From an uncultured Gammaproteobacteria bacterium (GTDB lineage: Bacteria; Patescibacteriota; Patescibacteriia; UBA9934; GWF2-40-263), in contig CAYMBX010000001.1 of assembly GCA_964388785.1 (NCBI GenBank), positions 1 through 60,525 on the forward strand: DNA of 60,525 bases, read 5' to 3'. Made by a program: the position numbers and the translations under genes. Shown here piece after piece: positions 9,917-46,362 of the stretch. The first letter of the stretch is position 1, and every line of letters starts with the position of its first letter. Under the pieces are notes generated by a model. That model made no database searches. It worked only from the letters and a program-made list of their open reading frames with translations, and was not told the DNA's origin.

Positions 9917-9956
9917 TTGACAGCATCATTACTTCGTGTGTATACTTACACTAAGT
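9917..9956 (+). promoter_or_regulatory. nrtR promoter (TTGACA-N18-TATACT) with palindromic operator site A, ACTTCGTGT-N8-ACACTAAGT (9931..9956)
   Basis: The -10 box at 9941..9946 lies in the operator spacer. The ATG at 9957 is only 10 nt after the -10 box, so the mRNA is nearly leaderless. Confidence 0.6.
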
Positions 9957-10625
9957 ATGAAACACCACCCTTCTGCCCAAAATGTAAAAGTTGCTGTGGA
10001 CGCGATCATTTTTACCATCAAAAATGATGCACTTCATGTCCTTCTCATCCAAATGAAAAAAACGCCGTTTACAGGACAATGGGCAGTGCCCGGTGGTCTC
10101 ATTGAAGAAAAAGAAACGACGCATGAAGCCGCAACACGTATTTTGCATACCCAAACCGGCGTCAGAGATGTTTACCTGGAGCAGCTCATGACGTTTGACG
10201 ACGTCGAACGGGATCCGGCGGGACGCGTCTTGAGCGTCTCCTACTTCGCCCTTCTCCCAAATGCCGATGCCAAGATCAAAACGACGGAAAAATATTCCGA
10301 TGTCCGTTGGTGGCCGATCAAGAAACTGCCGACACTTGCCTACGATCACCAACCAATGATTCGTCTCGCACGTAAACGCCTTGAATCAAAAATTCAATAT
10401 ACCAACATCGTCTGGAGCTTGCTTCCACGCGAATTCACGCTCACACAACTTCAACGCGTGTACGAAATCATTCTCGATAAACCGCTCGACAAACGCAATT
10501 TTCGAAAACGCCTCTTGGCCCTGGATTTCATCAAACCCACCGGAAAAAAAGAACAAGGAAGTGCGTATCGACCGGCTGCCCTTTATCAATTCAAACAGCA
10601 CACACTTGAATACGTAGAGATTTAA
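9957..10625 (+). CDS. nrtR: NrtR-type regulator (Nudix-like ADP-ribose-sensing domain plus C-terminal winged helix)
   Basis: Degenerate Nudix box GQWAVPGGLIEEKETTHEAATRILHTQTGV (REL changed to RIL, EE lost). C-terminal FTLTQLQRVYEIILDKPLDKRNFRKRL wHTH. Sits directly upstream of NAD genes. Confidence 0.75.
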   Translation: MKHHPSAQNVKVAVDAIIFTIKNDALHVLLIQMKKTPFTGQWAVPGGLIEEKETTHEAATRILHTQTGVRDVYLEQLMTFDDVERDPAGRVLSVSYFALLPNADAKIKTTEKYSDVRWWPIKKLPTLAYDHQPMIRLARKRLESKIQYTNIVWSLLPREFTLTQLQRVYEIILDKPLDKRNFRKRLLALDFIKPTGKKEQGSAYRPAALYQFKQHTLEYVEI

Positions 10626-10651: not shown

Positions 10652-10686
10652 TTGACGTATCAGTTAGTGTGTAATATACACTATAT
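10652..10686 (+). promoter_or_regulatory. NAD-island promoter (TTGACG-N17-TATACA) with operator site B, AGTTAGTGT-N7-ACACTATAT (10662..10686)
   Basis: Same half-site and the same -10-in-spacer geometry as sites A and C. About 158-nt leader to the nadD-like ATG. Confidence 0.6.
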
Positions 10687-10844: not shown

Positions 10845-11450
10845 ATGAAAAAGGTGTTTGTGCTTGGCGGGAGTTTCAACCCGCCCGCTCTCCACCACGA
10901 AACAATCGTCCGTGAGCTCATCGCAGTGCTCGATTCGAAGGACGAGCTTCTGGTAATCCCCTGCGGCGATCGGCCGGACAAACGGACCACTGGTTCGGTT
11001 GCGCCGATGCATCGCGCCAACCTAGCACGTCTCGCCTTCGGCAAGTTCGATCGAGTCATGCTCGACTTAAGCGATCTCGACCACGACGAGTTCACCCGCA
11101 CCGCCGATCTCAACGATCGGCTTCGCGCGCAGTATCAAGATTATGAGATCATTCTGGTTGTTGGTCAGGATCTGATCGAAGGCGGGGCCACGGGAGCATC
11201 CGAAATCCATCGCGTTTGGCACAGAGACGAAGAGCTGTGGAACGACGCATCGTTCCTTGTGCTCACGCGCGGTGACAAAGTGCCGGATCGAGATGATCTT
11301 CCGCCACACAGCCACGTCCTACAGATCAGCGCGCCCGGCTCGAGCAGCGAGGTCCGATCACTTATTCGTGAAAACCGCGACGTTCGGTCGCTTATCAGCC
11401 CGAAAGTGCACGAATACATCGTGCATCACCGGCTTTACATGGAGAGATGA
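10845..11450 (+). CDS. nadD: Nicotinate/nicotinamide-mononucleotide adenylyltransferase
   Basis: GGSFNPPALHHETIV (GxFxPxHxxH) and C-terminal SAPGSSSEVRSLI (ISST-like). GAGGA Shine-Dalgarno. Confidence 0.8.
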   Translation: MKKVFVLGGSFNPPALHHETIVRELIAVLDSKDELLVIPCGDRPDKRTTGSVAPMHRANLARLAFGKFDRVMLDLSDLDHDEFTRTADLNDRLRAQYQDYEIILVVGQDLIEGGATGASEIHRVWHRDEELWNDASFLVLTRGDKVPDRDDLPPHSHVLQISAPGSSSEVRSLIRENRDVRSLISPKVHEYIVHHRLYMER

Positions 11451-12580
11451 TGGTTACGCGAGAAAGTCGATTTCAAGGTTCGCTCATGGGCGTACGCATC
11501 GGCGACGGCCTCGGTATGCCGTGGGAATCGCTCACCGCCGAGCAGATTCGCGAGCGCACCGATGGGAAGGGCGTGCATACGTACCACTCCCCACAGCAAC
11601 GCAGCGATGCGCCAGCATGGGCTCTGCAGCTCGGGATTCTCAACCCGGGTGACTCAACCGATGACTGGCAGCTCACGCGCGCGACGGCACAAAGTCTCAT
11701 TCGCTGTGGCCAGCTCGATCTCGCCGATCTGGCACGCACCTTCGTCGACGAACACGCGATCTGCCGTCTCGGTTGGGGCGGAACCACCGAGTGGGGCATC
11801 GCGCAGATCGAAGCGTGGTTCAAGACAAACGGAATCGAAGGACGTTCGCCCGGAGAGTTCCCTCCAAATCCGGAAAGCGAGAACGAACGTTTCGGCACCG
11901 GCAACGGAGTCGCGATGCGCATCGCGCCGATCGGCCTGCTGGCCAGCCACGCGTTTAGCGAAGATGGCCGGATCGATGAGGGTGCGCTGATCAGCTTCAT
12001 GGAGTCTGTCTGGGGAGTGGGAGGTCTCACACATCCAGACCCGCGGGCAACGGTCGGCGCATTCGCGATCGCGAGCTTCATTGCGCGACTCACTGCGCGC
12101 GAAGGCCGGCCGCTCGCACAGCACCATCTCCTCAAGATGTTCGACAGTGTGCTCTATGAGGTCACACGCATGGAGCGCGAGTTCGCGTCGACGATCGGCT
12201 GGACGAGAAATCGTGAGCCGTTCTCAGCGCGGATGAACTGGATTCGTCCGCTCATTCTGGCGAATGCGTCCGCAACGCAGATCCGCGTGAAGTTCGGAAC
12301 CTCGAGCTACACACTCGAGTCCGCTGCGTTCTCGATCGCGACCTTTCTGCGCCACCCCACGGACTTCCGCGCCGCCCTGCGGGAGGCCGTCGAGGCCGGC
12401 GGGGATACGGACACCAACGCCGCGATCGTAGGAAGTCTCGTGGGCGCGAACGTTGGACTCGAAGGAATCCCTGAGGAGTGGATGGGGCGCGGGGACTTCC
12501 TTGTGGCGGAGACGCTGGGATCCGATCTCTGGAACCTGGTCCTGGACATCCTCACGTCACCGTACTCCAACGCTTCTTGA
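11447..12580 (+). CDS. ADP-ribosylglycohydrolase family protein (DraG/ARH-like)
   Basis: N-terminal FQGSLMGVRIGDGLGMPWE and C-terminal GGDTDTNAAIVGSLVGA, which are typical ARH metal-site motifs. Start overlaps the nadD stop. Confidence 0.8.
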   Translation: MMVTRESRFQGSLMGVRIGDGLGMPWESLTAEQIRERTDGKGVHTYHSPQQRSDAPAWALQLGILNPGDSTDDWQLTRATAQSLIRCGQLDLADLARTFVDEHAICRLGWGGTTEWGIAQIEAWFKTNGIEGRSPGEFPPNPESENERFGTGNGVAMRIAPIGLLASHAFSEDGRIDEGALISFMESVWGVGGLTHPDPRATVGAFAIASFIARLTAREGRPLAQHHLLKMFDSVLYEVTRMEREFASTIGWTRNREPFSARMNWIRPLILANASATQIRVKFGTSSYTLESAAFSIATFLRHPTDFRAALREAVEAGGDTDTNAAIVGSLVGANVGLEGIPEEWMGRGDFLVAETLGSDLWNLVLDILTSPYSNAS

Positions 12581-12591
12581 TCTCCTTCTTC

Positions 12592-12640
12592 GCGGACCGG
12601 CTGTGCCTCGGTCGGTCCGCACACCCTTTTTCTTCTTTGT
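12592..12640 (+). terminator. Probable terminator hairpin (GCGGACCG...CGGTCCGC followed by a T-run)
   Basis: Read directly. The T-run is 6 nt after the stem, so this is weaker than the other terminators. Confidence 0.5.
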
Positions 12641-12663
12641 CATTTCGAACGAACCCCCTCTCC

Positions 12664-12742
12664 CTTGTCATCCTGAGGGAGCGCAGCGACCGAAGGATCT
12701 CAAAGTCTGTCGGGATCCTTCGCTGACGCTCAGGATGACAGG
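12664..12742. repeat. Long REP-like inverted repeat (CTTGTCATCCTGAG...CGAAGGATC / GATCCTTCG...CTCAGGATGACAGG)
   Basis: Nested arms at 12664-12677/12729-12742 and 12691-12699/12714-12722. Resembles the GTCATCCTGAG...GAAGGATC palindromic elements common in environmental genomes. Confidence 0.75.
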
Positions 12743-12826
12743 AAAGAAAGCACTCAAAGTGATCAAAAGTTCGCCTGAAATGACAGAGTGGAAACCCCAC
12801 TCTTCGCACCTTCCAAGGAGCAAACC

Positions 12827-14116
12827 ATGCGTCCACACGCAGAATTGATCGACGAAATCCTCGACGGCCCGGTCGTCGGCAACATGCTCGACGACGACTT
12901 CTACACCTACTCGATGGGTCAGGCAATCGTCTTGAACCGCCCGCAGGTCGAAGTCGACTTTCGTCTCACCAATCGTTCGCGAGGCGTCGTGCTCACCCAC
13001 GAGGTCAGTCCGGACGAGCTCGCACAAGAGCTCGACCGGCTCAAGGTTCGACGTTTCACTCGGACGGAACTGCACTATGTGCTCGGAACCAACGAGTACG
13101 GTGAGCGCATGTTCCGATCGGAGTACATCGACCACTTGCGCGAGCTTGCACTGCCCGATTTTCATCTGGGAGTTCGGGATGATGGCCAGTTCGATCTGCG
13201 CTTTCCGGGCGTTTGGTCTCGGGCCATGCACTGGGAAGTTCCGGCCCTCGCGGCGATCAACGGGCTGCGCATGCGCAATGCTCTGCGGCGGATGACACCC
13301 TTCCAGCGTGATGAGGTCATCGCGCGCGGTGTTGCACGGTTGGGCGAGAAAATCCGCGTCATCCGTGAACTTCCGGGTCTCACGTTCACGGACTTCGGAA
13401 CACGGCGCCGCTTCCATCGTGCCTGGCAGCGCTACATCGACAAGACGCTTGCGCAGGAACTCCCCGGACAATTCCTGGGAACCTCGAACGTCGAGGCAGC
13501 CATGGACTTCGGGCTTCTGCCCATGGGCACCAACGCCCACCAGATGTTCATGGTGATCGCCGCGCTCATGAGCGAAACGGATGAAAGTCTGCTGCGCTCA
13601 CACAACCAGGCCCTGCGCGAGTGGTGGCAGCTCTACGGATGGGGTCTCTCAATCGCGCTCACCGACACCTTCGGCACGGACTTCTTCTTCCGTGACTTCA
13701 CGCCCGAACAGGCGCGCGCATGGAAGGGTCTGCGCCAGGACTCCGGGGATCCGATCGTGTTCGGACACAAGGCACTCGACTACTACCATCGCCGTGGCAT
13801 CGATCCGAAAGAGAAGCTTCTCATCTTCTCGGACGGACTCGATCTCGACATGATCGTCCGGCTCTACAACGAGTTCAAGAACGAGATCAAGGTGAGCTTC
13901 GGATGGGGAACGTTGCTCACCAACGACCTCGGACTCTCACCGATCTCGATCGTCATCAAGGCCATGCGCGCAAGGCGTGATGCGGGAAGCGTGTGGATCG
14001 ACACCTGCAAGCTCTCCGACAACATCGCCAAGGCGATGGGTACACGTGAGACGATCGACCGTTACGCACGTGTGTTCGGCTACGACTCGCACTTCGAGGA
14101 GACACCGATCGTCTGA
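12827..14116 (+). CDS. pncB: Nicotinate phosphoribosyltransferase
   Basis: N-terminal MLDDDFYTYSMGQA (the LDTDxYKxTM pattern), about 430 aa. AAGGAG Shine-Dalgarno 6 nt before ATG 12827; the ORF-track GTG at 12788 was rejected. Confidence 0.85.
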   Translation: MRPHAELIDEILDGPVVGNMLDDDFYTYSMGQAIVLNRPQVEVDFRLTNRSRGVVLTHEVSPDELAQELDRLKVRRFTRTELHYVLGTNEYGERMFRSEYIDHLRELALPDFHLGVRDDGQFDLRFPGVWSRAMHWEVPALAAINGLRMRNALRRMTPFQRDEVIARGVARLGEKIRVIRELPGLTFTDFGTRRRFHRAWQRYIDKTLAQELPGQFLGTSNVEAAMDFGLLPMGTNAHQMFMVIAALMSETDESLLRSHNQALREWWQLYGWGLSIALTDTFGTDFFFRDFTPEQARAWKGLRQDSGDPIVFGHKALDYYHRRGIDPKEKLLIFSDGLDLDMIVRLYNEFKNEIKVSFGWGTLLTNDLGLSPISIVIKAMRARRDAGSVWIDTCKLSDNIAKAMGTRETIDRYARVFGYDSHFEETPIV

Positions 14117-14222
14117 TGCTCCTTTCCCTCCCTGACCAGCCTCACTGGTCGCTTTTCGCCAGCTGCTCACCATATGGTGGGACGCTGACGATTCGTATTG
14201 TTCTTCACAACGAGGTAACCCC

Positions 14223-16271
14223 ATGACCGTCAAGGTACAAACCGTTCGCGGACGTTCAACGTCGCATGGGTTCGCTCGCGTCGCCGCCGCCTCCTTTTGG
14301 ACGCGCCCGGCTGCGATTGAGCAGAATTTGCAGCGTCACCTCGAAGCCGCTCGCGAGGCGGACGCCGAGCGCGTTCAACTGCTCGTCTTCCCTGAACTCG
14401 GCCTCACCGGCTACGCTTGTCGCGATCTCTTCCGGGACGACCACCTGCGCGTGCGTGCGCTCGAAGCGCTTCGGACGTTCTGCGACGAAACCCAGGACAT
14501 GGGAACCGTGTTCGTAGTCGGTCTGCCGCTCGCACTCAACGGTCTGTACAACGTGGCAGCTGTCGTCATTCACGGAGAGGTGCTGGCACTCATCCCCAAA
14601 TCCTTCCTCGCGGCTCGCAGTGAGTGGCAGGAAGACGAATGGTTCGTGCCGGCGTCGCACCTGCAGACCGAGTCGGTCATCCTGCCCTGGCAGAAAGAAG
14701 CCGTTCCGATCGGAACGGACATTCTGATCGAGGTGATGGACGAGAACGATGAAGAGCAGGTGTTCGTTCTGGGTGTCGAAATCTGTGCGGACGGCTGGCA
14801 GGCCGGCTCGCCCGGTGATCGGCTGGCACTCAACGGCGCGACCGTCATCGCCAACCTCTCGGCATCCAACTGGGTGCTCGGGAAGGACAAATGGCGTGAG
14901 GTCGTCTTCCCGGCCAGCTCGGGTCAGCAGAAGGCCGTCTACATCTACTGCACGATGGCTGGCGACTCGACCGCGAGCGTCACTTGGGACGGCCACTGCT
15001 TCATCGCCGAGGACGGCAACATCCTCGCGCGTTCCAAGCGTTGGCTCACGCCCACGCAGAGCGACCTTAGCGTCGCAGACGTGGACATCGCGCGCCTTCT
15101 GCGCGATCGAATGGTCGACGGCGAGTGGGCACAGGCCGAACATCTCCACCAATCGCCGCACCGAAAGATCACCGCCTTCGTGCGCACCTGGCCCGCGGAC
15201 GTCAACGATTTCCGCCGCCCGCTCACGCGCATGCCGTTTGTCCCGAAGGACGCAGCGGTGATGCACGAGGTCGCAACCGAACTGTTCCAGGGTCTCGCCC
15301 AAGGACTGATCGGCCGACTCTGGACGATGAAAAATGGTCAGCCGATCGATACCTACCTTGGCCTCTCCGGCGGGTCGGACTCTACGCTCGTCTATCTCAT
15401 CGCGTGCTACGTCTACGATCGGCTCGGCTGGGACCGCAAGCACTTGCACGCGGTGCGCCTGCCCGGGCCCGCCTCGAGCACGCGCACACAGCGCAACTCA
15501 CGCCTGCTCGCGCAGGCGATGGGGACGAGTCTGCACACCGTCAACATCACGAAGCTCGCCACGCGCGCGCTGCGTGACGTGGGACACGAGCCGTGCTGGC
15601 AGTGCCTCCAGTGCGAGAACGCACAGGCACGCGCCCGCACGTTCGTGCTCATGACCTACGGATTCGTTCTGGGCACCGGCGACATGACCGAAAAGGTGCT
15701 TGGATGGGCCACCTATAACGGCGACCAGATGTCGATGTACGACGTCATCGCCGGAGTGCCCAAGACGCTCGTGCGCTACCTCATCGCCGCCTACGTCGAA
15801 CACATGACCAAGGACATGGTGGTGAGACGCACGCTTCGAAGCATCCTCGCCGAGGTGATCTCGCCCGAGCTCGTCAAAGTCAAGCCCGGCGAACCGATCC
15901 AGTCTTCCGAGGCGAAGATCGGTCCGTACGATCTCAACGACTTCTTCCTCTACCATGTGATCCGCACCGGCGCCACGCCCGCGCGGATCGCCTTCCTCGC
16001 ACAGATCGCGTTCTCGAGGAAGGAACGTGAGACGGACCTCATCTACAACCTGCCAACCATCCTCACGTGGTTGAAGAGCTTCTACAGCCGGTTCAACCCG
16101 GCCCAGTACAAGCGAAATGCCGGTGCGGATAGCGTGCTTATTGGATCGGTGGGAATCGGCCCACACGACAAGCTGCGTTTGCCCTCCGACGGCGATGTGT
16201 TGATCTATCTGCGTGAGGTTGAGGCCATGCTGACGGCTGTCAGCTCATGCACCGAGGCGGCTGCAGCGTAA
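14223..16271 (+). CDS. nadE: Glutamine-dependent NAD+ synthetase (CN-hydrolase domain plus NAD synthetase domain)
   Basis: N-terminal nitrilase-like LLVFPELGLTGY...EICAD. C-terminal LGLSGGSDST PP-loop. 682 aa. GAGGT Shine-Dalgarno. Confidence 0.9.
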   Translation: MTVKVQTVRGRSTSHGFARVAAASFWTRPAAIEQNLQRHLEAAREADAERVQLLVFPELGLTGYACRDLFRDDHLRVRALEALRTFCDETQDMGTVFVVGLPLALNGLYNVAAVVIHGEVLALIPKSFLAARSEWQEDEWFVPASHLQTESVILPWQKEAVPIGTDILIEVMDENDEEQVFVLGVEICADGWQAGSPGDRLALNGATVIANLSASNWVLGKDKWREVVFPASSGQQKAVYIYCTMAGDSTASVTWDGHCFIAEDGNILARSKRWLTPTQSDLSVADVDIARLLRDRMVDGEWAQAEHLHQSPHRKITAFVRTWPADVNDFRRPLTRMPFVPKDAAVMHEVATELFQGLAQGLIGRLWTMKNGQPIDTYLGLSGGSDSTLVYLIACYVYDRLGWDRKHLHAVRLPGPASSTRTQRNSRLLAQAMGTSLHTVNITKLATRALRDVGHEPCWQCLQCENAQARARTFVLMTYGFVLGTGDMTEKVLGWATYNGDQMSMYDVIAGVPKTLVRYLIAAYVEHMTKDMVVRRTLRSILAEVISPELVKVKPGEPIQSSEAKIGPYDLNDFFLYHVIRTGATPARIAFLAQIAFSRKERETDLIYNLPTILTWLKSFYSRFNPAQYKRNAGADSVLIGSVGIGPHDKLRLPSDGDVLIYLREVEAMLTAVSSCTEAAAA

Positions 16272-16283
16272 CCGCGCCTCTCT

Positions 16284-16312
16284 GCAGCGAACTCCCTGTT
16301 CGCTGCTTTTTT
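16284..16312 (+). terminator. Rho-independent terminator after nadE
   Basis: GCAGCGAAC-tccct-GTTCGCTGC followed by TTTTTT. Confidence 0.85.
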
Positions 16313-16347
16313 GTTAAGTGGTAGGAGTGAAGTGTGAGGGGATCGGG

Positions 16348-16380
16348 TTGACGAATTTCAAAAATTCGTGCATAATTCGT
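16348..16380 (+). promoter_or_regulatory. Internal promoter TTGACG-N17-CATAAT with inverted repeat ACGAATTT-ca-AAATTCGT (16351..16369) and a third AATTCGT at 16374
   Basis: Read directly, in a low-GC spacer between nadE and the Nudix pair. Confidence 0.55.
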
Positions 16381-16412
16381 CCTCGCGATTAACGTTGCGA
16401 GCAACTCGGAGA

Positions 16413-17210
16413 ATGGAAATGTCACATTCCATCATGATCAACGGGCGAACAGTGCCCGTGACCGGCCAATACGCACCGGAGGCGGTCGACAGCCCACTCC
16501 TCAAGGACTGGGCGACTTCGCTCGATCCCCGCATCGTCGTGAACAAGGTGAAGGTGCTCGCACTCGTCCTGTTTGGAAAGCTGCCAAAACTCCGCGTCGG
16601 GTTCATGATGATCGATGCGGAGATGACGCTCGATGGCAAGTCCATTCCCGGCGTGGCGTTCCTGCGCGGCGATGCGGTCGCCATCTTCGTCGAAGTCAAC
16701 TGCGAGGGTGAGCGCTACGCACTCATGACCGTTCAACCACGCGGGCCGGTCGGCGAACTACTCGTCGAAATCCCGGCCGGCATGATGGACGGCAGTGGTC
16801 ACTTCCTCGGCAAGGCCGCGGACGAGCTACGCGAAGAAACGGACATCGAGATCGACCCCGCGCAACTCATCGATCTGTGTGCGCTTGCGCAAGGGTCGCC
16901 GGCGCCGCGTGGCGTCTACACGTCCCCAGGCGGCAGCGACGAGGCCATTCACTACTACTGGTACCGCGTCGTCCTCAGCCGCGAGGAGCTCAAGGAACTC
17001 GAAGGCAAGGCTACCGGTCTGCTCGAGGAGGGCGAACAGATCACGCTCAAGGTCGTCCCCTTCGGCGAGCTCGCCCGATACCGCGACGGCAAGCTCATGA
17101 CCGCACTCGGTCTGCTCGCCGTCATGGAACTCGCGGAGACGTACAGGATCGTCGATCGCGCCGTTGTGAACGCAGATCTCAACAAGGCGGCAATCGAAGC
17201 CGCTGCCTAG
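16413..17210 (+). CDS. Nudix hydrolase, ADP-sugar/ADP-ribose pyrophosphatase-like
   Basis: PAGMMDGSGHFLGKAADELREETDIEI Nudix box and a long N-terminal dimerisation-type domain as in ADPRases. Start chosen at ATG 16413 after GGAGA. Confidence 0.7.
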   Translation: MEMSHSIMINGRTVPVTGQYAPEAVDSPLLKDWATSLDPRIVVNKVKVLALVLFGKLPKLRVGFMMIDAEMTLDGKSIPGVAFLRGDAVAIFVEVNCEGERYALMTVQPRGPVGELLVEIPAGMMDGSGHFLGKAADELREETDIEIDPAQLIDLCALAQGSPAPRGVYTSPGGSDEAIHYYWYRVVLSREELKELEGKATGLLEEGEQITLKVVPFGELARYRDGKLMTALGLLAVMELAETYRIVDRAVVNADLNKAAIEAAA

Positions 17211-17699: not shown

Positions 17700-17743
17700 T
17701 TTTCCTTCTCTTCATAACTCCAGTCCGGACGTTCATCTGCCTT

Positions 17744-17785
17744 GCCGAAGGGAACAACGGTGATGAGTCCGTTGGCCCGAAGGCA
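17744..17785. repeat. REP-like element, family 2 copy (GCCGAAGGGAACAACGG-N8-CCGTTGGCCCGAAGGCA)
   Basis: Near-identical to 1393..1433. Lies between convergent genes. Confidence 0.75.
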
Positions 17786-17819
17786 GGGCAGACGAACGAA
17801 CAACATAAAAAGGACGCTT

Positions 17820-19160
17820 TCACGTCCAAGAAAAAAGATCGCCGCCGGTCTTTTTCGAAAAATCGACGTAACGATCAACGAAGTTGATGACGCACGCGGC
17901 GTCTACGTCGCGGTGAAACGCAATGTTGGGTCCGTGTCCGTCGAGCTGCACCGCGTAGATGCCGGGTTCGATCTCGCGCATGTTGGAGGCGGTGTTGAAT
18001 CCACATTCGTTCGAACCGCATTCAAACGGTTTCTGGCTCGCCGTCGGGATCATCTGCTCGCCTTCGCGCGTGAGCGGACAGTGCACATGCACGATCGCAT
18101 GGACCTTGTCAGCAAACCGTTCGTAGATTTGCTGCTGGGTGTGTTCGCCGACCGAGGGTCGAGCGCCCGCCGCGATGATGCTTCCATCCTCATCGCCAAA
18201 GATCTTTGCCATGCCGTCCTCGAGCACACGGTTGTGATCGGTCTTGCGCACCGAACTCACACGTACGTACGGCTCGCCATCGACAAAGCATCCGAAGTGC
18301 CCGCTCGTTTTTCCGAGAAACGATTTGAAGCCGCCACGTGCGATCAGATGCTCGAGCACCGGAACGAAGTTCTGCGGAATCTTGCCCTGCGCATACAGTT
18401 CACGAACATTCGCCCTCTCGCCTTCCCGCATCGTGGTACGCACGAAGGTGAGTTTGGTACGATCTGCGATCATCTCACAAAGCAGATCGAGTGCTTCACC
18501 TCGCGATGAAGTCGCGTACGGAAATTCCTCTGGGGTCACCACGAGGTTCGTGTGACGCACCACGTCGTTTGCGAGCACGAGGTTTGCACTGTTCCTCTTG
18601 AGGAGCTTCAGTCCGCGCGCGTACGTCTCCTGTTCACTCTGTCCGGCCGTCGTTTTGAACGCGACCAGAAAGATGTCTTTGCGCGTACGACGAACCGTTG
18701 TAAGCAACTTCTCGCTGGGAACGATCGTAAGCGTGTGTTCACGATCGGACGACAGACGCGGATGTATGTGCTTGCCGAAGACAGTTGGATCCGTGTAGGT
18801 CGGAGTGATCTGCAATGGTTCGAAATCGCACACGGCCGCGGCAGCGATGATGCAACGCGTCGATGGGTCTGTTGCGAGATGTGTCAGCAGAGCTTCCAAA
18901 TCCTCGTTGGTGACCAGGTCATGGATACCGACTTTCGCGAACAGCTCTTCGTCTTCTTGTGCACGATCCCATCCTCCCTGTGCCATGCGTGTGAGGACCA
19001 GGCGAACTTCCGCGCCCTCGTGCCCGGCCCTGATAAGGGCACCCGGCAGTCGACCTACAAGCTCACGTCCAACTTTGCCGAACGCCGGTGCGGAAAGCGC
19101 GAAATGCGGCGAGACGTGGTTGAACGTTCCACCCGCAATGACGTAATACACACATTTCAT
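17820..19160 (-). CDS. Fusion protein: phosphopantothenate-cysteine-ligase-like (DFP/CoaB fold) N-domain plus class II aldolase/adducin-like C-domain
   Basis: N-domain: VIAGGTFNHVSPHFALSAPAFGKVG and AAAVCDF (compare the CoaB patterns TAGGT..PID and AAAVaDy). C-domain: GKTSGHFG, ARPSVGEHTQQQIYERFADKVHAIVHVHCP, LDGHGPN (class II aldolase pattern PSsE..H..iY...aivHtH). AGGAGG Shine-Dalgarno. Confidence 0.6.
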   Translation of the reverse strand: MKCVYYVIAGGTFNHVSPHFALSAPAFGKVGRELVGRLPGALIRAGHEGAEVRLVLTRMAQGGWDRAQEDEELFAKVGIHDLVTNEDLEALLTHLATDPSTRCIIAAAAVCDFEPLQITPTYTDPTVFGKHIHPRLSSDREHTLTIVPSEKLLTTVRRTRKDIFLVAFKTTAGQSEQETYARGLKLLKRNSANLVLANDVVRHTNLVVTPEEFPYATSSRGEALDLLCEMIADRTKLTFVRTTMREGERANVRELYAQGKIPQNFVPVLEHLIARGGFKSFLGKTSGHFGCFVDGEPYVRVSSVRKTDHNRVLEDGMAKIFGDEDGSIIAAGARPSVGEHTQQQIYERFADKVHAIVHVHCPLTREGEQMIPTASQKPFECGSNECGFNTASNMREIEPGIYAVQLDGHGPNIAFHRDVDAACVINFVDRYVDFSKKTGGDLFSWT

Positions 19161-36507: not shown

Positions 36508-36618
36508 ATGACGGAAATGCGTCAGAATCATACGGGTTTTCTGTGAGTTCGTCAAGCGTTTCGTTGACAAATCCATTACGGTTTGAAAAACTGTGGTCGC
36601 CTACGCAGGAGGAGAGCC

Positions 36619-37275
36619 ATGCAGTTCCCCGGCGAATTCATGTGCGGATGGAGAGTCAAAGAGGCAAACGGCTATGTGGTCGGAGTCGACGTCGTCACCT
36701 CGCCGTCCCCGCATCAAGTGGTCACCCAGGCGCTCGGCCAGCTCGGGCTGGGCCTGAGCGACGTGTTTGCTGAATGCAACGAGATTTCGGTTCGAGCACC
36801 CATCGGTGCGGACCACATCTCGCGCGTTCAGCTCCCCGCCTCGCTAGATCATCTCCCCTCCGACGTCCGCGAACGCATCGCGTACACGGCACTCGTTGGC
36901 TCACACGATCTCTTCATCGTCGTGCAATACATCAAGGCGCTTGAGAATCTCGTGCGCAAGCTGGTTCCCCGCTACGTGGAGGCGAATCATCTCACTCTGC
37001 GCGTCTGCGTCGAGCACCAGCCGCTCGTCCAAATCATCGACACGAAAGATGAAGCGGCTCGATATCGGGTGGAACAGCAGAACGTGATACGCATGCGGCC
37101 GAGCGCGCAACTGGCTGAACACGAAGGAAGCATGCGCCTGCGCCTCATGGGATTCCACACCACCTTCCCGCTCAGGCAGTGGGCCCACAACCTCGTCCCC
37201 ACCATGGTCTCCTTGCTCATCCTTGAACATCTCTCCGGCGCGCACTTTGTCGCCGGAACCGACTCGATCAACTGA
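36619..37275 (+). CDS. Hypothetical protein (high-GC orphan beside the tRNA scar)
   Basis: ATG 36619 preceded by AGGAGGAG. 218 aa, no motif recognised. Confidence 0.55.
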   Translation: MQFPGEFMCGWRVKEANGYVVGVDVVTSPSPHQVVTQALGQLGLGLSDVFAECNEISVRAPIGADHISRVQLPASLDHLPSDVRERIAYTALVGSHDLFIVVQYIKALENLVRKLVPRYVEANHLTLRVCVEHQPLVQIIDTKDEAARYRVEQQNVIRMRPSAQLAEHEGSMRLRLMGFHTTFPLRQWAHNLVPTMVSLLILEHLSGAHFVAGTDSIN

Positions 37276-37332: not shown

Positions 37333-38388
37333 ATGCAAGCCTTTCCACAACACATGACCATTGAAAAATGGTTTTTTCTCCTCATTACGGCAGTGGTTGC
37401 CGGTCTCTTTTGGAAGATTATTCAACCGTTTGCACTCGTGCTTTTAAGCGCGGCTGTCTTCGCGATCATGCTCTCACCGCTCGATGCCCGGCTGAACAAA
37501 TTTCTTAAACATCCCCGCATCTCCGCCGCCATCATTTCCATCGGCGTCGTGATCCTCGTGTTTGTTCCCCTTCTTCTTCTGTCGCTCGTGATGGTACGCC
37601 AAGCATCAGACCTCATTCAAAATTCATTCCATGAAACCGGTTGGATCGAAGGGATCCGCGCATTTTTGTTACCGATTATTTCACTGCTTCCCCAACATGT
37701 TCAGGAATCGATTCTTTCCTACGACGTGACCCAGCTTGGAGTGACAATCGCCACGTGGGCGTTCAATAATATCGGCAACATTTTTGAAAGTGCGACCAAT
37801 CTGATCCTCAATACGTTTCTGTTTTTTATTGCGCTTTATTATCTTATTGTCGATCGCGAAAAAATTTATGCCGAAGTGCTCGCGCTTTCCCCACTCAAAG
37901 ACAACGTGGATGTAAAAATCCTTAAACGCGTCATCGGCACGGTGCGTTCGGTGGTGTTTGGTGTGCTTATCTTGGGATTCGTTCAAGGTGTATTTGCCGC
38001 AATCGGCATGAGCATCTTTGGCGTGCCCGGTGCGCTCATCTGGGGTGCGGTCACGGCGCTTGCCGCACTTGTCCCACTTGTCGGATCCGCGCTCGTGCTC
38101 GTTCCCGCCGTCTTGTATCTCTTCTTTACCGGCTCCACCGCCGCGGCATTTGGGTTGCTTATCTGGTCGGTCGTTGTGGTCGGACTCGCTGATAACATCT
38201 TGGGGCCTTATCTCATCAAAGGCACCACGCACATGCACGCATTTCTCGTGCTCATTTCGGTGCTCGGTGGCATTCAAGTGTTCGGGTATATCGGCGTGAT
38301 TGCCGGCCCGACAATACTCGCCGCCCTGCTTGCGCTTATTGAATTGTATCAGTCGGGTATTTTGACGAAAGGAAGAATTACGCAATAA
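37333..38388 (+). CDS. AI-2E family transporter (PerM/YhhT, UPF0118)
   Basis: 351 aa, 7-8 hydrophobic helices and a characteristic C-terminal GGIQVFGYIGVIAGP. Confidence 0.75.
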   Translation: MQAFPQHMTIEKWFFLLITAVVAGLFWKIIQPFALVLLSAAVFAIMLSPLDARLNKFLKHPRISAAIISIGVVILVFVPLLLLSLVMVRQASDLIQNSFHETGWIEGIRAFLLPIISLLPQHVQESILSYDVTQLGVTIATWAFNNIGNIFESATNLILNTFLFFIALYYLIVDREKIYAEVLALSPLKDNVDVKILKRVIGTVRSVVFGVLILGFVQGVFAAIGMSIFGVPGALIWGAVTALAALVPLVGSALVLVPAVLYLFFTGSTAAAFGLLIWSVVVVGLADNILGPYLIKGTTHMHAFLVLISVLGGIQVFGYIGVIAGPTILAALLALIELYQSGILTKGRITQ

Positions 38389-38512
38389 GACCTCTGAAAA
38401 ACTAGTGGATTTTTGTTGAACGGGCTGTCGAGCTCGCGAGACGTAGGTTAATCTTACGTTGAGCGAGTCGACGGGTACCCGTGAGACGAAAAGACACGGT
38501 TTTGCAGAGGTC
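38389..38512. repeat. Nested inverted-repeat element (outer GACCTCTG/CAGAGGTC; inner GTCGAGCTCGCGAGACGTAGG...CTTACGTTGAGCGAGTCGAC)
   Basis: Read directly in the convergent intergenic region. Confidence 0.6.
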
Positions 38513-38520
38513 TTTGAAAT

Positions 38521-38550
38521 TAAAAAGCAGGGTTCACGAGGGAACCCTGC
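38521..38550 (-). terminator. Rho-independent terminator of the PP2C-kinase operon
   Basis: GCAGGGTTC-loop-GAACCCTGC with a T-run on the minus strand. Confidence 0.8.
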
Positions 38551-38565
38551 AAGGGAAGTTGGCGC

Positions 38566-38919
38566 CTACGCGCCGAAGCCCGACGCAGCGGTCTGACTGA
38601 AGCCGGCGCCGCCCTGGCTGGCGCGCACCGCCGACTGGGAGACGACGGCCATGGCCGCGCGGATCTCGCTGGGCGTGTTGCCCGGGGTCAGGACGAACTC
38701 GCGCGGGATCCCCATGGATTCCGCGACCTTGTGGAAGTCCGTGTGGCCGTCCTTGATCCCGATGAAGAAGACGAGGTGCGTCTCGCGACGCAGCATGTCC
38801 TCCACGATCGCCTTGACGCTCGCGGGCGTCTGGTGGCGGGAGTGCTCGTCCATCTTGGGGCGGTAACCCCAGATGCCGGCGTTCTTGGGATCGAAATGTT
38901 GAGGCATCGGAAGCTGCAT
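38566..38919 (-). CDS. Small hypothetical protein, third gene of the PP2C-kinase operon
   Basis: ATG 38919 with GAGAGGAA Shine-Dalgarno. 117 aa with a Gly/Ala/Ser/Gln-rich tail. The HLVFFIGIKDGHTDFHKVAESMGIP segment faintly recalls the last beta-alpha units of vWA domains, but there is no DxSxS MIDAS motif. Confidence 0.55.
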   Translation of the reverse strand: MQLPMPQHFDPKNAGIWGYRPKMDEHSRHQTPASVKAIVEDMLRRETHLVFFIGIKDGHTDFHKVAESMGIPREFVLTPGNTPSEIRAAMAVVSQSAVRASQGGAGFSQTAASGFGA

Positions 38920-39003
38920 GACGTTCCTCTCTTTTTCCTTTGAAGCCTTGGTTGCAAGCAACAACTTTTACGTGGGCTACTCAACCACGGTTCTGCACCC
39001 GCC

Positions 39004-40950
39004 TCAGGACATCTTCAGCAGGTGGATCTCATCTCTGCGGATCACGTAGATCCCCTCCTTCGCGTAGAACAGCCGCGAGGAGGCGTCGACAAAGGGCTCC
39101 GTGTCGGCGAAGTGGCGCGTCTGCACGATCCCGGTAGGCTCGGCATCCACGCATACAATCCCTTCATCCGTCGGCACGAACAGGACGTGTCGGATCCCGC
39201 CACCCTGCTTGGGCAGCGTCACGGCACATCCGCCGCGAATGTCACTCAGCCACGATCCGTCGCCGTCCGTAGCCTCATGGCTCGCGATCACTTTCCCGTC
39301 TGGTGCGAGCACCGTGCAACGGTTGATCAGGTTGCCGAGGTGCTGGCTCTTGGTGAAGAACCAAACTCCGTTAGACGAGAAGACGGCGTGCGCGTCCACC
39401 AGCTGCCCGGGGATGGGCGGCAGGTTGACACTATCGTTGAGCGACCGCTTTGCCTCGTTGAAGACGAACGCCTGGAAGAGCGCGCCGGCTCGGTAGAATC
39501 CGAATCCGAACGCCGGCCCCGTCCAGATGACCGTCTGTCCGCTCAGCACGTTACCGATCAGCTCGGTGGTGTCGATGCCGAAGTTACCTTCGCGCACGAG
39601 CTGTCCGCCCTGAAGACGAAACAGCGTCTTGGCGGTGGTGTCGAACATCGGCTTGTGACCGAACGTATCGACGTTCAACGCCTTGGGTGCCTCGCCTGGT
39701 TCGATCGCAACGAGCCGTCCGCCAAGCCCGATCAGGGTACGCGTTCCGCTGATGCGCAAACGCATCTCGGGGCGTGCAGGCTGTGTGAACACGACGGTCG
39801 CATCTTCGCGACGAATCTGTCCGCCCTCTTCGTAGAGGTAGACGAGCTTTCCGTCTTGCATCGCGACCTGCAGAATCCGACCGTGAGCACGCCCGTTGGG
39901 GAACAACCTAGTAGCTGTCACCTTTCCACGTACGGTCACATGCTGCGCGATCGCCGCCGCGGCCACACCGCACTGCGGACAAGTCCGCCGTGCGTGCTCG
40001 AAGCCGCAGTCATTGCACTTCGTCCATCGCAAGTTCTCAAGCAGACTCGCCTCGACCTCGCCGCGGCGATCCTTCTCGAACACGTCGAGGAAGAACTGAA
40101 GCAGTTCGTCGGGAAGTAGCTTGGGGCTGCGCGCCGGCTTGGGGTAGATGACGTCTGCGCCAAGCACGCTTGCCCGCCTGAGGCTTCGCGCATCATGCGC
40201 GATCCTTTGGCTGGCTTCTTTGGGCTTGTGCACTCCCCCGTACGGTCCGGTCCACAGCAGGCTCTCAAAGAGCATGACCAGGAACGCGAACCAATCGGAG
40301 TTGGTGGTGTGCGGTTTGATGAGCATCGGCTTGGTCGCCGCGGGATCGCACAGCATTGGGTCGACGAATCGCGCCGTGAACATCGGACTCAGGAAATTGC
40401 CGAACTGCATGGAGTCCGCGTCGACGAGCATCGGGATTGCCTCGGGCGTGCCAATCTTTTGGATAAGCACGTTGAGGTCGTTGAAATCCGCGATGATGAT
40501 CCCCGCCTTGTGGATCTGCGCGACCAGAGTGCGCAGACGCAGGAAGAAATGAACCAGATCCTTGGGCGCGATCTGCTTGCGCAGACCTTTGTCGTCGTGT
40601 AGAGCCATGAGCTCGCGTGCATCGACGATAAGGGGCATGGTGTAGCCGTAGATCGCTCCCTTCCTGTCGGTCGCAAGGTCCACAGGCGCGATCAGACCGC
40701 TCGGCAGGTCCTTTTTGGGGAACGCCGCCAGTTTTGTCTGATGCGTGGCGATGCGCTGTCGTGCCTCCCGTGCGAGCCGTTCACGATCCGGCCCCGGCGG
40801 AAGCGACACGATGTCGGGGTGGTCGGGCGTCTTGAACACCTTGAGTGCCTTATCGCCCAGCCGATAGACGTCGGCTTCACCACCTTTTCCGAGCACCATG
40901 GCCGGATCCAGACGAACTCGGTTTCCGGCGACGATCAATTCGGTAAGCAT
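39004..40950 (-). CDS. Ser/Thr protein kinase-like protein (648 aa) with central zinc ribbon and a large C-terminal domain
   Basis: VLGKGGEADVYRLGDKALKVFK (G-loop plus lysine), HKAGIIIADFNDLNVLI (catalytic loop), LVDADSMQF (DFG-like), CNDCGFEHARRTCPQCG. GGAGG Shine-Dalgarno. Start is 2 nt after the PP2C stop. Confidence 0.75.
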   Translation of the reverse strand: MLTELIVAGNRVRLDPAMVLGKGGEADVYRLGDKALKVFKTPDHPDIVSLPPGPDRERLAREARQRIATHQTKLAAFPKKDLPSGLIAPVDLATDRKGAIYGYTMPLIVDARELMALHDDKGLRKQIAPKDLVHFFLRLRTLVAQIHKAGIIIADFNDLNVLIQKIGTPEAIPMLVDADSMQFGNFLSPMFTARFVDPMLCDPAATKPMLIKPHTTNSDWFAFLVMLFESLLWTGPYGGVHKPKEASQRIAHDARSLRRASVLGADVIYPKPARSPKLLPDELLQFFLDVFEKDRRGEVEASLLENLRWTKCNDCGFEHARRTCPQCGVAAAAIAQHVTVRGKVTATRLFPNGRAHGRILQVAMQDGKLVYLYEEGGQIRREDATVVFTQPARPEMRLRISGTRTLIGLGGRLVAIEPGEAPKALNVDTFGHKPMFDTTAKTLFRLQGGQLVREGNFGIDTTELIGNVLSGQTVIWTGPAFGFGFYRAGALFQAFVFNEAKRSLNDSVNLPPIPGQLVDAHAVFSSNGVWFFTKSQHLGNLINRCTVLAPDGKVIASHEATDGDGSWLSDIRGGCAVTLPKQGGGIRHVLFVPTDEGIVCVDAEPTGIVQTRHFADTEPFVDASSRLFYAKEGIYVIRRDEIHLLKMS

Positions 40951-40952
40951 GG

Positions 40953-41801
40953 TTACTGCCTCCGTCCCACGATCAGCGTCGTGTCGTCCTTGAGATGACC
41001 TGCTTCGGTGACCAACCGTCGTGCGTCCCAATCCGGCAACACGGAGGTGAGGTTCGCCAAAGCCAAGCGTCTGCGGATGTTATCCGTGTTTCTAAAGAAC
41101 CGCTCTTCCTCCCAGAACTGGGACAGCGGGCCGACGAGCTGATCTTTGCCGGGCAGGCGCAGCTGGCTTGCGCGCACGAAGTGGCGCAAACCGTCTGTCC
41201 CGACCAGGAAATGATCCAGTCGTTCGGTGCTGACGACTTGGAGGATCTCGAACTTGAGCGACTCCGGCTTCACATCCGCAAGCGACGTGTCCACCAGCGC
41301 GTACGCCAGATACACCGGCGCGTTTCCTGCTTCCGGTTCGATCCAGAACTCCTCGCCGTTGATGATGATGAGACCGTCTCCGCGGGAGAAGAACACGCAG
41401 AACTCTTCGGTCAGAATCGCGCCGACGAGTGTGAATAGGAAGTGCTCGTTGATCGTGGACGAATAGGATCCACCCATCGAGAGCGCAAGTGTGCGCATCT
41501 GTGCAAGCACATCCTGTCGGGCACGCTCCAGGATCTTCATGAACTGCATCCTGGGTGCATCGTCCGTCTTCTGCCAACGCTTGAGCTGGAACGCGAGTGC
41601 ACTCTGCAACAAGCGCACGCCGATTTTGGCGCCGACTTCGCTGTGTGCACCGGAACCGCACCCGTCCGCCACGAGGCAGATCTGTGTGGAACCGAACACT
41701 GATTCGCTGGACGTGATTCCATAGGCGTCATGTCCATTGGATTCTTTGAGCGCCTGACGATGATCGGTTCCAACAACGGAACCGGCAGCCAATTCGAACA
41801 T
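40953..41801 (-). CDS. PP2C-family protein phosphatase (PP2C_2-like)
   Basis: LVADGCGSGAHSEVGAKIG and FLVGTDGL motifs. ATG 41801 with GGAGG Shine-Dalgarno; the longer ORF-track start at 41912 lies in the low-GC leader and was rejected. Confidence 0.7.
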   Translation of the reverse strand: MFELAAGSVVGTDHRQALKESNGHDAYGITSSESVFGSTQICLVADGCGSGAHSEVGAKIGVRLLQSALAFQLKRWQKTDDAPRMQFMKILERARQDVLAQMRTLALSMGGSYSSTINEHFLFTLVGAILTEEFCVFFSRGDGLIIINGEEFWIEPEAGNAPVYLAYALVDTSLADVKPESLKFEILQVVSTERLDHFLVGTDGLRHFVRASQLRLPGKDQLVGPLSQFWEEERFFRNTDNIRRRLALANLTSVLPDWDARRLVTEAGHLKDDTTLIVGRRQ

Positions 41802-41968: not shown

Positions 41969-42006
41969 ACTTAGTGTAATATATACACATAGTAAAATCT
42001 TGTCAA
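41969..42006 (-). promoter_or_regulatory. PP2C-kinase operon promoter (minus strand TTGACA 42006-42001, N17, TATATT 41983-41978) with operator site C, ACTTAGTGT-N7-ACACATAGT (41969..41993)
   Basis: Same half-sites and -10-in-spacer layout as sites A and B at nrtR and the NAD island. Confidence 0.6.
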
Positions 42007-43107: not shown

Positions 43108-44049
43108 TCAAGGTGCACACACGTTGTGCTCGCGCAGGAAGCTGTTGATCGCAGAGGCGATTTCGTCGGGTCCGCGTGCGGATCCGTTACCGCGTGCGTT
43201 ACCAAAGACGATGTCCCCGCCACCGAAGTGATCGGCCGGATCCTCATCACGATTGAGAAACGCGCAGATTTCCGGCACCGGAAACCACGTCGCGTATGTA
43301 CTCTTGCGGCAGACGGTGTACACCCAGCGCCCATCTCCCTTCTGTCGTGCGGAGACAAACGCCCGAATGCCGTGACGCGCCATCTTCATGCGCGCATGCG
43401 GACCAATCTCCCGCACCATGGACCAGTTCTGTCCGCCGCCGAGGGTCTCGTAGCGATCGTCAATGTCCAGATTGTGCCCACGACTGGCCACGAACTCATT
43501 GATGCGCGAAACGATGTCCCAGAGCACACCGATGTACGCAGCGGCGTTCTTCTGATCGATCGCTCCGCTCATGCGGAAGTTCCAGTACGGCTCGAAGATC
43601 CATGCACTCTGGCCGACGATCGGCATGTCACGTGGCACAGCGAGCAGTCCACTCGACTTGTCCATGGATTGCACGTGACCAAAGAGACGATTGACCGCCG
43701 GATTCACCGGATCGCGCACGATGTAGTGATGGGTGAGCGCGTACCAGGAAAGGGCGACGTCCGGATCCGGATCGTTCATCCAGACCAAAACATTCTCGTC
43801 GCCCCGCGGCATCAACAGTTCAACGAAATCATCTGTGCGAATCTGCTCAAGCACCTGCACGGCCGTGCAGTGCATACAGCTGCGCGGAGGACCGGCGTGG
43901 TGGTCGAAATTGAACTGGAGCCGTGCGACATCGATCTGCGGGGGACCGTACACGAAGCCATCAAGTGCGATCGAACGCTCCGGCATCTGCGTTTGGAAGT
44001 GCTCCCAGGTCACCACACGACCCGGAAGCATGTGAGGAACGAATCCCAT
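43108..44049 (-). CDS. Hypothetical protein (high GC) with DHH-like and GGG motifs
   Basis: NFDHHAG and a late GGGDIVFG. GGGAGGAG Shine-Dalgarno. Only 34 nt upstream of ribE. Confidence 0.5.
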   Translation of the reverse strand: MGFVPHMLPGRVVTWEHFQTQMPERSIALDGFVYGPPQIDVARLQFNFDHHAGPPRSCMHCTAVQVLEQIRTDDFVELLMPRGDENVLVWMNDPDPDVALSWYALTHHYIVRDPVNPAVNRLFGHVQSMDKSSGLLAVPRDMPIVGQSAWIFEPYWNFRMSGAIDQKNAAAYIGVLWDIVSRINEFVASRGHNLDIDDRYETLGGGQNWSMVREIGPHARMKMARHGIRAFVSARQKGDGRWVYTVCRKSTYATWFPVPEICAFLNRDEDPADHFGGGDIVFGNARGNGSARGPDEIASAINSFLREHNVCAP

Positions 44050-45704: not shown

Positions 45705-46130
45705 TTAGTGAGAGGATTCCGAGAACCACAGACGCTCCTTGAACGCTTCAACCACCTTGTAGTGATCAAAGCCGAGCAGGTCGCGCGTGAGGTCGCACAA
45801 CCGAATGAGATGGATGCTTTGCGCATCGCTTCCCGCGCGTGCTTTCGTCAGGAGGTGCTGTGGAATGCGCATTCCAAACACGTAGCTGATCCGCCTTCCG
45901 GGACGCGGATCGCGATCCGGAGCGTCGAGGCGACAGATGAACTGGAGATCATAGGGAGAAACTTCGATCCCTACTTCTTCCTTGAGTTCACGCGCAGCCG
46001 CAAACTCGAACCGCTCGCCTTCATCGACATGCCCGCCCGGAAGGACAAACTTGTCCTCGAACGGGGGCTTGGCACGACGAATGAGAAGAACGTTGTCGTA
46101 CTCGTCGAGCAGAAGGATGTCGACTGTCAT
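45705..46130 (-). CDS. Nudix hydrolase
   Basis: Canonical box LPGGHVDEGERFEFAAARELKEEVGIEV. Start at ATG 46130. Confidence 0.8.
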   Translation of the reverse strand: MTVDILLLDEYDNVLLIRRAKPPFEDKFVLPGGHVDEGERFEFAAARELKEEVGIEVSPYDLQFICRLDAPDRDPRPGRRISYVFGMRIPQHLLTKARAGSDAQSIHLIRLCDLTRDLLGFDHYKVVEAFKERLWFSESSH

Positions 46131-46140
46131 GATGATCTTT

Positions 46141-46362
46141 TTAGTACTTTGCATGTGGCACCGGCCAAAGCTGAGCATGACAGTCCTTGCATGTACGCCA
46201 GGCATCACCGGCGTTGTCCCGACCGCTCGCCTGATTCTTGTGCGGACAGTCGTACTTGAGCTTCTCGAACTCGCGATCGAGTGCCTTCACCTGTAGATCA
46301 AGCGTGATACGCTTACGCATCAAATTGTCATATGCATCACGCACCTGTTCGTCCGTCAGCAT
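46141..46362 (-). CDS. Small hypothetical protein (coiled N-terminus, CPHK...CKDC pair)
   Basis: 73 aa with AAGAGGA Shine-Dalgarno. Overlaps the upstream ORF by 7 nt. Confidence 0.5.
   Translation of the reverse strand: MLTDEQVRDAYDNLMRKRITLDLQVKALDREFEKLKYDCPHKNQASGRDNAGDAWRTCKDCHAQLWPVPHAKY

Follow-up and report, generated by a model that had tools for sequence, protein, structure and literature searches.

A probable deletion derivative of a four-gene phosphatase–kinase–nicotinamidase–vWA cassette with an apparent connection to an NrtR regulon

The window analyzed in this work is a stretch of 60,525 nt from contig CAYMBX010000001.1 (assembly GCA_964388785.1), and the element in question is an operon of three co-oriented minus-strand genes encoding, in this order, a PP2C-family phosphatase, a protein kinase and a 117-aa open reading frame (ORF). 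Judged by its homologies, the 117-aa ORF is an in-frame chimera of the start of a nicotinamidase gene and the end of a von Willebrand factor A (vWA) gene, left by a deletion of ~1.6 kb. We propose, with a probability of roughly 60%, that the locus derives by decay from a conserved four-gene cassette, in which a TerY-P-type phospho-switch is combined with a nicotinamidase within an NrtR regulon. For the window the result is corrective, since the puzzling third gene is read as a deletion scar. Comparison with relatives exposed a large unannotated cassette tying such a switch to a nicotinamidase inside an NrtR regulon. This four-gene cassette was undescribed; the window locus is a degraded member of it, and the parent cassette is the object of interest.

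The 117-aa ORF and the deletion junction

In relatives, two genes follow the kinase gene, G3 (~350 aa) and then G4 (~263 aa), as in L001 (a syntenic metagenomic locus), L003 (Leptolyngbya 'hensonii') and others. Both families were represented by hidden Markov models (HMMs), and structures were modeled with AlphaFold2, for which pLDDT (the predicted local distance difference test) is given. The features of the operon in the window are listed below.

41978..42006, minus strand: sigma-70-type promoter-like site (TTGACA at 42006..42001, 17-nt spacer, TATATT at 41983..41978; 11 of 12 consensus positions matched)
41972..41990, no strand assigned: NrtR-type operator-like palindrome ATGTGTATATATTACACTA (core GT-N7-AC) that overlaps the PP2C promoter-like site at its -10 hexamer
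40953..41801, minus strand: PP2C-family Ser/Thr phosphatase, 282 aa, intact (ATG at 41801, TAA at 40955..40953; PF13672 PP2C_2, E = 6e-16)
39004..40950, minus strand: kinase gene, 648 aa, intact (ATG at 40950, stop codon at 39006..39004)
40036..40950, minus strand: protein-kinase domain, aa 1-305 (AlphaFold2 model, Foldseek, invariant residues, similarity to YegI)
39961..40023, minus strand: zinc ribbon CxxC-x8-CxxC, aa ~310-330 (four invariant Cys, weak Pfam zinc-ribbon matches)
39004..39942, minus strand: C-terminal all-beta domain, aa 337-648, plus stop codon (AlphaFold2 pLDDT mostly >90; ~29 strands)
38566..38919, minus strand: 117-aa ORF (ATG at 38919, TAG at 38568..38566)
38851..38919, minus strand: codons 1-23 of the fusion ORF, remnant of the G3 5' end (G3 HMM; alignments to L001, L005 and L007 at both the protein and the DNA level)
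38848..38853, minus strand: deletion junction ATGGAC, codons 23-24 (switch of homology; contig L090 identical through the junction)
38566..38850, minus strand: codons 24-117 plus stop codon, remnant of the G4 3' end (G4 HMM; conserved Ser/Gln-rich tail kept)
38527..38550, minus strand: intrinsic-terminator-like hairpin followed by a T-run, TTTTTAATTT (9-bp stem, 6 GC pairs)

The coordinates of the three genes agreed with those given in a preliminary description of this DNA, and so did the tight coupling, with exactly 2 nt between the PP2C stop codon and the kinase ATG. The terminator placed after the 117-aa ORF was also found, as the terminator-like hairpin and T-run at 38550..38527. Of the GGAGG-type ribosome-binding sites assigned to all three genes, the third had to be corrected to GAGAGGAA. 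The TTGACA-17-TATATT site is promoter-like, as judged by its match to the consensus. Across 78 PP2C homologs, 30 columns show a conservation of 95% or more, and the phosphatase retained every one of them, including the DG, GDG, DG and DD metal-site motifs.

The 117-aa ORF was matched by both families, by the G3 HMM at positions 2-28 (E = 4.9e-6) and by the HMM of G4, the vWA family, at positions 168-260 (E = 1.5e-44). Its N-terminus, MQLPMPQHFDPKNAGIWGYRPKM, aligned with the first residues of G3, and residues 24-117 aligned with the C-terminal ~94 residues of G4. In DNA alignments with relatives, it is inside the ATGGAC hexamer that homology to the 5' end of G3 gives way to homology to the 3' end of G4. 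Compared with L007, ~1.63 kb was missing, the deletion was in frame, and microhomology at the junction was no longer than 2 nt. An in-frame deletion of ~1.6 kb would thus have fused G3 codon 23 to about G4 codon 170. All nicotinamidase catalytic residues and the whole metal-ion-dependent adhesion site (MIDAS) were removed. Residues 1-23 of G3 remain, and the G4 remnant starts past the last MIDAS residue, so that DxSxS, T and D all lie in the deleted part. The G4 remnant was 72-76% identical to the G4 proteins of L010, L001 and L007. GC content at third codon positions (GC3) was 0.92 in the fusion ORF, 0.77 in the kinase gene and ~0.5 in ribE and ribH; with a GC3 of 0.9 and nearest-relative identities of 63-76%, synonymous sites are probably saturated.

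These alignments bear on several earlier claims. The third gene had been described as encoding 117 aa with no MIDAS motif, and this is correct, as the MIDAS residues are gone and only the stretch matching G4 HMM positions 168-260 is left. The resemblance of its middle to the C-terminal part of vWA proteins, called vague at the time, proved to be far stronger than that. A truncated vWA partner was one of three options offered, and it is the one that fits, with only the last ~94 vWA residues kept. The other two, a replaced vWA partner and a different three-component system, taken together as a distinct phosphatase, kinase and small-protein system in which an unrelated third gene had replaced the vWA gene, could draw on the lack of any useful match for the 117-aa protein in Pfam, NCBIfam or PADLOC, a search that also returned no unrelated known family. 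Each half of the protein shows homology to part of one of the two genes located after the kinase in relatives, which refutes this reading, and it can hardly be credited.

Among 101 loci (89 genomic or metagenomic and 12 from IMG/VR), this was the only ORF matching both the G3 and the G4 families. No second instance of the 117-aa protein was found among 5.8 billion proteins, where only three G4 fragments at contig ends were matched. The locus is therefore a one-off deletion derivative and not a stable 'vWA-less variant'. The suggestion of a vWA-less variant of a triad holds insofar as the vWA gene is truncated, and fails in that the variant is not stable and the parent unit has four genes.

An assembly or population artefact at the junction, such as contig collapse, a faulty join or a deletion allele carried by a minority, which would hide a full cassette that is really present, was also considered. 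The contig is metagenomic, and with microhomology this short the junction can be neither dated nor verified from the sequence alone. Against such an artefact, a Logan contig from a separate assembly (L090, run SRR5011273) was identical over 2.19 kb and ran ~25 nt beyond the junction, the deletion is exactly in frame, and the flanks are otherwise colinear with L010. We regard this explanation as very improbable.

The kinase and the four-gene cassette in relatives

The AlphaFold2 model of the kinase (pLDDT 90.8) comprised a kinase fold, a zinc ribbon and an all-beta domain of ~310 aa. In Foldseek searches, the top matches of the kinase domain were the kinase domains of ULK1 and CaMKII. The Gly-rich loop GKGGEA, K37, D155-x4-N160 and D177/D179 were invariant across 31 kinase homologs, as were the ribbon cysteines C312, C315, C324 and C327. 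The fold and these residues bear out the eukaryote-like kinase core that had been predicted, and settle in the affirmative an earlier doubt as to whether the catalytic residues would hold up on proper alignment. The cysteine ribbon was likewise present, with a spacing of x8 between the CxxC pairs in place of the x10 first reported. The C-terminal domain, expected to be about 300 aa long, is all-beta according to the model.

Searches of PDB and BFVD with the whole kinase model were dominated by kinase-domain matches, and the Nup159 propeller ranked 29th among the PDB matches. From the ~29 strands and this one match, the C-terminal domain may be described as beta-propeller-like. The domain was seen in no other setting than this kinase architecture, which accounted for 528 of 1.84 billion representatives. 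Full-length homologs of the kinase at ~45% identity numbered more than 1,100, nearly all of them unannotated. The best whole-length structural match was a 550-aa phage-annotated kinase, BFVD entry A0A8S5RYX0 (Myoviridae sp. ctNQV2; E = 6e-23), which spanned both the kinase domain and the beta domain of the window kinase.

In relatives, G4 is modeled as a vWA protein with a complete MIDAS. Its DxSxS, T and D motifs were invariant, and the AlphaFold2 model (pLDDT 85, predicted template modeling score 0.87) retrieved vWA, integrin-I or MIDAS domains as all of its top PDB matches in Foldseek. The G4 profile gave no match to PDB sequences, and its hhalign probability against YegL was a marginal 18%; because sequence methods alone were marginal, the structure model was needed for the vWA assignment.

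By profile comparison, G3 is a member of the PncA-type nicotinamidase family in relatives, with putative activity. Aligned to Escherichia coli PncA with hhalign, it reached a probability of 96% (E = 4e-9), and the WPxHC motif, the KG..PL..YS.F motif and the catalytic Cys were aligned. The G3 profile matched Mycobacterium tuberculosis PncA at E = 0.008 in three segments, namely the N-terminal DVQNDF, WPPHC and the catalytic Cys. The IDxQxDF motif of G3 pairs with this DVQNDF motif, in which we take the catalytic Asp of PncA to lie. PF00857 was reached by 7 of 14 G3 members, the rest falling below threshold. Residues D56, H196, K230 and C282 were invariant in G3.

Relatives of the kinase were found in at least 409 species-level genomes, one genome per species being scanned. 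PP2C, kinase, G3 and G4 followed one another on one strand in 58 of the 64 loci with enough flank, and two of the six exceptions run off the contig. Synteny of kinase homologs with PP2C genes, which the preliminary description had raised as a check, was thereby established. In four cyanobacterial loci, the kinase and phosphatase pair or a lone kinase stands without adjacent G3 and G4 and is followed by housekeeping genes; a different third gene was considered for these loci and rejected for this reason. A kinase with or without PP2C and lacking G3 and G4 was seen in L039, L045, L047 (Spirulina), L060 (Prochloron) and L061, where the next genes were Dtd, Hsp70-like, CtpA and a nucleoside transporter. 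The cassette can be split: in Spirulina sp. CCY15215, a G4 homolog is located on a different contig (P0151). In L067 (11790-13455), from a long-read metagenome-assembled genome (MAG), both G3 and G4 are broken into two ORFs, and the frameshifts are either sequencing errors or the mark of another decaying copy.

The carriers belong to Patescibacteria, Cyanobacteria, Gammaproteobacteria, Planctomycetota and Acidobacteriota and include one archaeal MAG; Patescibacteria and cyanobacteria carry the cassette particularly often. The nearest relative, L010, is a Candidatus Uhrbacteria MAG with 63% identity. Gene order in L010 and the window is alike, with orf230-orf313-ribE-ribH, then the cassette, then an AI-2E permease. 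The slot between ribE-ribH and the AI-2E permease is common to the closest relatives L010, L001 and L007, and since it is shared with L010, the cassette was in place before the deletion. Two ORFs of this neighborhood had no Pfam match, namely a 313-aa ORF upstream of ribE (43108-44049, minus strand), 54% identical in L010, and a GC-rich 230-aa ORF beyond the AI-2E permease (36583-37275, plus strand).

The cassette exceeded its flanks in GC content by 6-15 points in the window and in L001. GC was 0.60-0.63 at 11000-18000 and 38000-41000 of the window and 0.45-0.52 in most of the rest, which suggests a foreign or shared origin of these two GC-rich blocks, the two parts of the putative NrtR regulon. 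Twelve IMG/VR contigs flagged as viral (L091-L102, 42-545 kb), which may be huge phages or misclassified Patescibacteria contigs, carried the complete PP2C-kinase-G3-G4 cassette, and no nrtR match was found within ~8 kb of flank on each side of it.

NrtR control, NAD salvage and the proposed mechanism

The other genes of the putative nicotinamide adenine dinucleotide (NAD) salvage regulon lie elsewhere in the window.

9936..10625, plus strand: nrtR, with a NUDIX domain and the NrtR winged-helix domain (PF21906, E = 1e-26; PF00293, E = 6e-16)
10665..10683, no strand assigned: second operator of NrtR type, TAGTGTGTAATATACACTA, which is a perfect copy and lies between nrtR and the NAD operon
10845..17210, plus strand: NAD salvage operon with a nadD-like gene, an ADP-ribosylglycohydrolase gene, a nicotinate phosphoribosyltransferase (NAPRTase) gene (pncB), a glutamine-dependent nadE gene and a NUDIX gene (Pfam)

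The palindrome occurs only twice in the window, at the PP2C promoter and beside nrtR and nadD. Across loci, 62 of 78 had TAGTGT-N7-ACACTA in the 300 nt upstream of PP2C, compared with 0.032 occurrences per 300 nt overall. The case for the operator is built on its position, the extended palindrome and this recurrence. An nrtR gene was found within 10 kb of the cassette in 45 of 64 loci, and the window NrtR matched the HMM of cassette-linked NrtR proteins over its full length (E = 1e-111). NAPRTase-like, ADP-ribosylglycohydrolase and Prs-like genes were frequent neighbors of the cassette. NrtR operators take the form of a 21-bp palindrome around a GT-N7-AC core, and NrtR comes off the DNA in response to ADP-ribose (PMC2330246). 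From sequence, the gene at 9936..10625 is the likely regulator of the PP2C-kinase operon, and the cassette appears to be under NrtR control together with pncB, nadD, nadE and the ADP-ribosylglycohydrolase gene. A NUDIX gene at 45705..46208 was examined as a neighboring nrtR and rejected, as it lacks the winged-helix domain.

No canonical pncA was found in the NAD salvage operon or among the window ORFs scanned, and the loss of G3 may have removed the only nicotinamidase encoded in the window. In L005 (6942-9240), and also in L012, L036 and L062, the cassette is followed by NAPRTase-like and Prs-like (ribose-phosphate pyrophosphokinase) genes. Gene pairs annotated in this way form the phage NARP1 NAD-reconstitution pathway (Adps and Namat), and the pairs seen here may be of either the PncB/Prs or the Namat/Adps type.

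In the mechanism proposed for the parent cassette, cleavage of NAD would raise ADP-ribose, NrtR would leave the operator overlapping the -10 hexamer, and the cassette operon would be transcribed. The kinase and PP2C would then reversibly phosphorylate the vWA protein, the nicotinamidase or both. Phosphorylation would gate the step that turns nicotinamide into nicotinate, and nicotinate enters PncB-NadD-NadE; as the nicotinamidase would supply nicotinate to this route, still encoded in the window, the switch would gate the first salvage step. In the window copy, the output step would be gone, and the kinase and phosphatase would be orphaned or in the course of being lost, still wired to NrtR.

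Several points weigh against the interpretation as a decayed, NrtR-controlled salvage cassette. The link of the kinase, phosphatase and vWA protein to the nicotinamidase, and the question of who phosphorylates whom, are purely what we infer. The 8-base operator core alone was not significant in the window, with 2 found and 0.68 expected. Cyanobacteria in which PP2C and the kinase stand apart from G3 and G4 suggest that the pair may have roles without adjacent partners. Contig L090 and the window may go back to a shared set of reads. The G4 remnant was 76% identical to G4 of L010, while the intact G4 of L005 was 64% identical to it, and so the remnant shows no extra divergence. As it is no more diverged than intact orthologs, either the deletion happened recently or selection still acts on the fusion protein, and 'scar' and 'functional mini-protein' are not separable from the present data. 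Finally, the patchy spread, the GC excess and the viral-flagged contigs fit a mobile or defense-type module equally well.

The fusion could accordingly be a functional small protein, acting as substrate, adaptor or decoy in a real three-gene derivative system. Its frame is open, a ribosome-binding site and a terminator are present, the remnant is as conserved as the intact genes, and the kinase and PP2C show no decay. The retained N-terminal peptide of G3 (LPxPxHFDP) is among the most conserved stretches of its family, and the same is true of the retained G4 C-terminal subdomain with its Ser/Gln-rich tail. Set against this, the protein is unique in the databases and loci searched, half of the vWA Rossmann fold is gone, which makes parent-like folding unlikely, and a recent deletion is the simpler account of these observations. 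We consider a functional fusion of this kind quite unlikely. It is also unlikely, if a little less so, that the parent cassette is a signaling module induced by ADP-ribose through NrtR, in which a TerY-P-type kinase/PP2C/vWA switch controls the PncA-type nicotinamidase, and that the 117-aa fusion in the window has been kept as a working partner of the kinase. If true, this would be the first Ser/Thr phosphorylation governing bacterial NAD salvage, or else an NAD-centered immune response.

The main rival to a role in salvage is a role in defense, in which the cassette would serve as a TerY-P-type anti-phage or conflict system, the nicotinamidase-like protein would act as an effector or a manipulator of the NAD pool in place of a housekeeping enzyme of salvage, and the window copy would be an inactivated one. 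Besides the patchy distribution across phyla, the GC excess in the window and L001 and the twelve IMG/VR contigs, this is favored by the Myoviridae kinase being the best whole-protein viral fold match, and by the fact that ADP-ribose, the NrtR effector, is also a product of NAD-depleting defense systems. TerY-P-like modules are stand-alone defense systems (Gao 2020, as cited in PMC11090510). On the other side, PADLOC models matched neither PP2C, G3 nor G4, and the kinase was hit only by the generic PD-T4-6 at 20 bits. Proximity to defense islands, raised in the preliminary description, was not borne out, the neighbors being NAD salvage genes and nrtR. In addition, the position between ribH and the AI-2E permease is fixed in diverged Uhrbacteria-like genomes, and the cassette is common in the very small genomes of Patescibacteria. 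On balance, a defense-type role seems rather unlikely, and the interpretation as a decayed salvage cassette is retained.

Comparison with known systems

The TerY-P triad consists of a TerY-like vWA protein, a PP2C phosphatase and a Ser/Thr kinase fused to a zinc ribbon, a definition by Anantharaman et al. 2012 that was taken second-hand from PMC11090510. A kinase with a zinc ribbon plus a beta-rich domain, located beside genes for PP2C and a vWA protein, was remarked on earlier (PMC7159879). All three protein types recur in the parent cassette, as does the fusion of kinase and zinc ribbon, with a beta-rich domain after it. In the window operon, the PP2C protein (PF13672) and the kinase with a C-terminal zinc ribbon are both present; the vWA protein with MIDAS is present in the cassette of relatives and absent from the window, where its last 94 codons are left. 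The parent cassette differs from the triad in a fourth conserved gene, encoding the PncA-type nicotinamidase, between the kinase and vWA genes. Its context is an NrtR and NAD salvage regulon, not tellurite-resistance or restriction loci. The TerY and TerY-P models of PADLOC gave no match for PP2C, the kinase, G3 or G4.

A likeness to E. coli yegI-yegK-yegL had also been suggested, and it holds for the kinase domain and the PP2C family. In BLASTP, YegI was 25% identical to the kinase domain over 294 aa (E = 3e-11), with D155, N160 and D177 conserved, and both proteins escape the Pfam Pkinase model. PphC/YegK belongs to the same Pfam family, PF13672, as the window phosphatase, and the MIDAS motif of YegL aligns with that of G4. 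The likeness fails for the C-terminal half of YegI and for gene order. The BLASTP alignment ended at kinase residue ~295, with none beyond it, and the C-terminal half of YegI has a helix-hairpin-helix match and, unlike the window kinase, no zinc ribbon or beta domain. A preprint (bioRxiv 10.1101/819920) describes YegI as a membrane protein with two passes. The E. coli genes are arranged in a different order from the cassette and include no nicotinamidase gene.

In comparison with PncA and isochorismatase-like hydrolases (PF00857), the relatives' G3 has retained the Asp in IDxQxDF, the metal/His motif WPxH, the Lys in IKGG and the Cys in SHCV. G3 is ~350 aa long, compared with ~190-210 aa for PncA, and has large insertions and a conserved N-terminal peptide. 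None of the PncA catalytic residues is encoded in the 23 G3 codons left in the window ORF.

With the NrtR regulons of NAD metabolism (Rodionov et al. 2008, PMC2330246), the window shares the domain architecture of the regulator, a palindrome of 19-21 bp with a GT-N7-AC core, and co-location with pncB, nadD, nadE and prs-like genes. The searched text of that paper mentions no PP2C, kinase or vWA genes. Our literature search found no paper joining NrtR or a nicotinamidase with a PP2C/kinase/vWA module, and none with both NrtR and PP2C. NAD salvage in Patescibacteria and cyanobacteria is, to our knowledge, poorly understood, and we know of no output established so far for the TerY-P triads. Here, both a plausible output enzyme, the nicotinamidase, and a plausible input signal, ADP-ribose, can be identified, which makes the switch testable.

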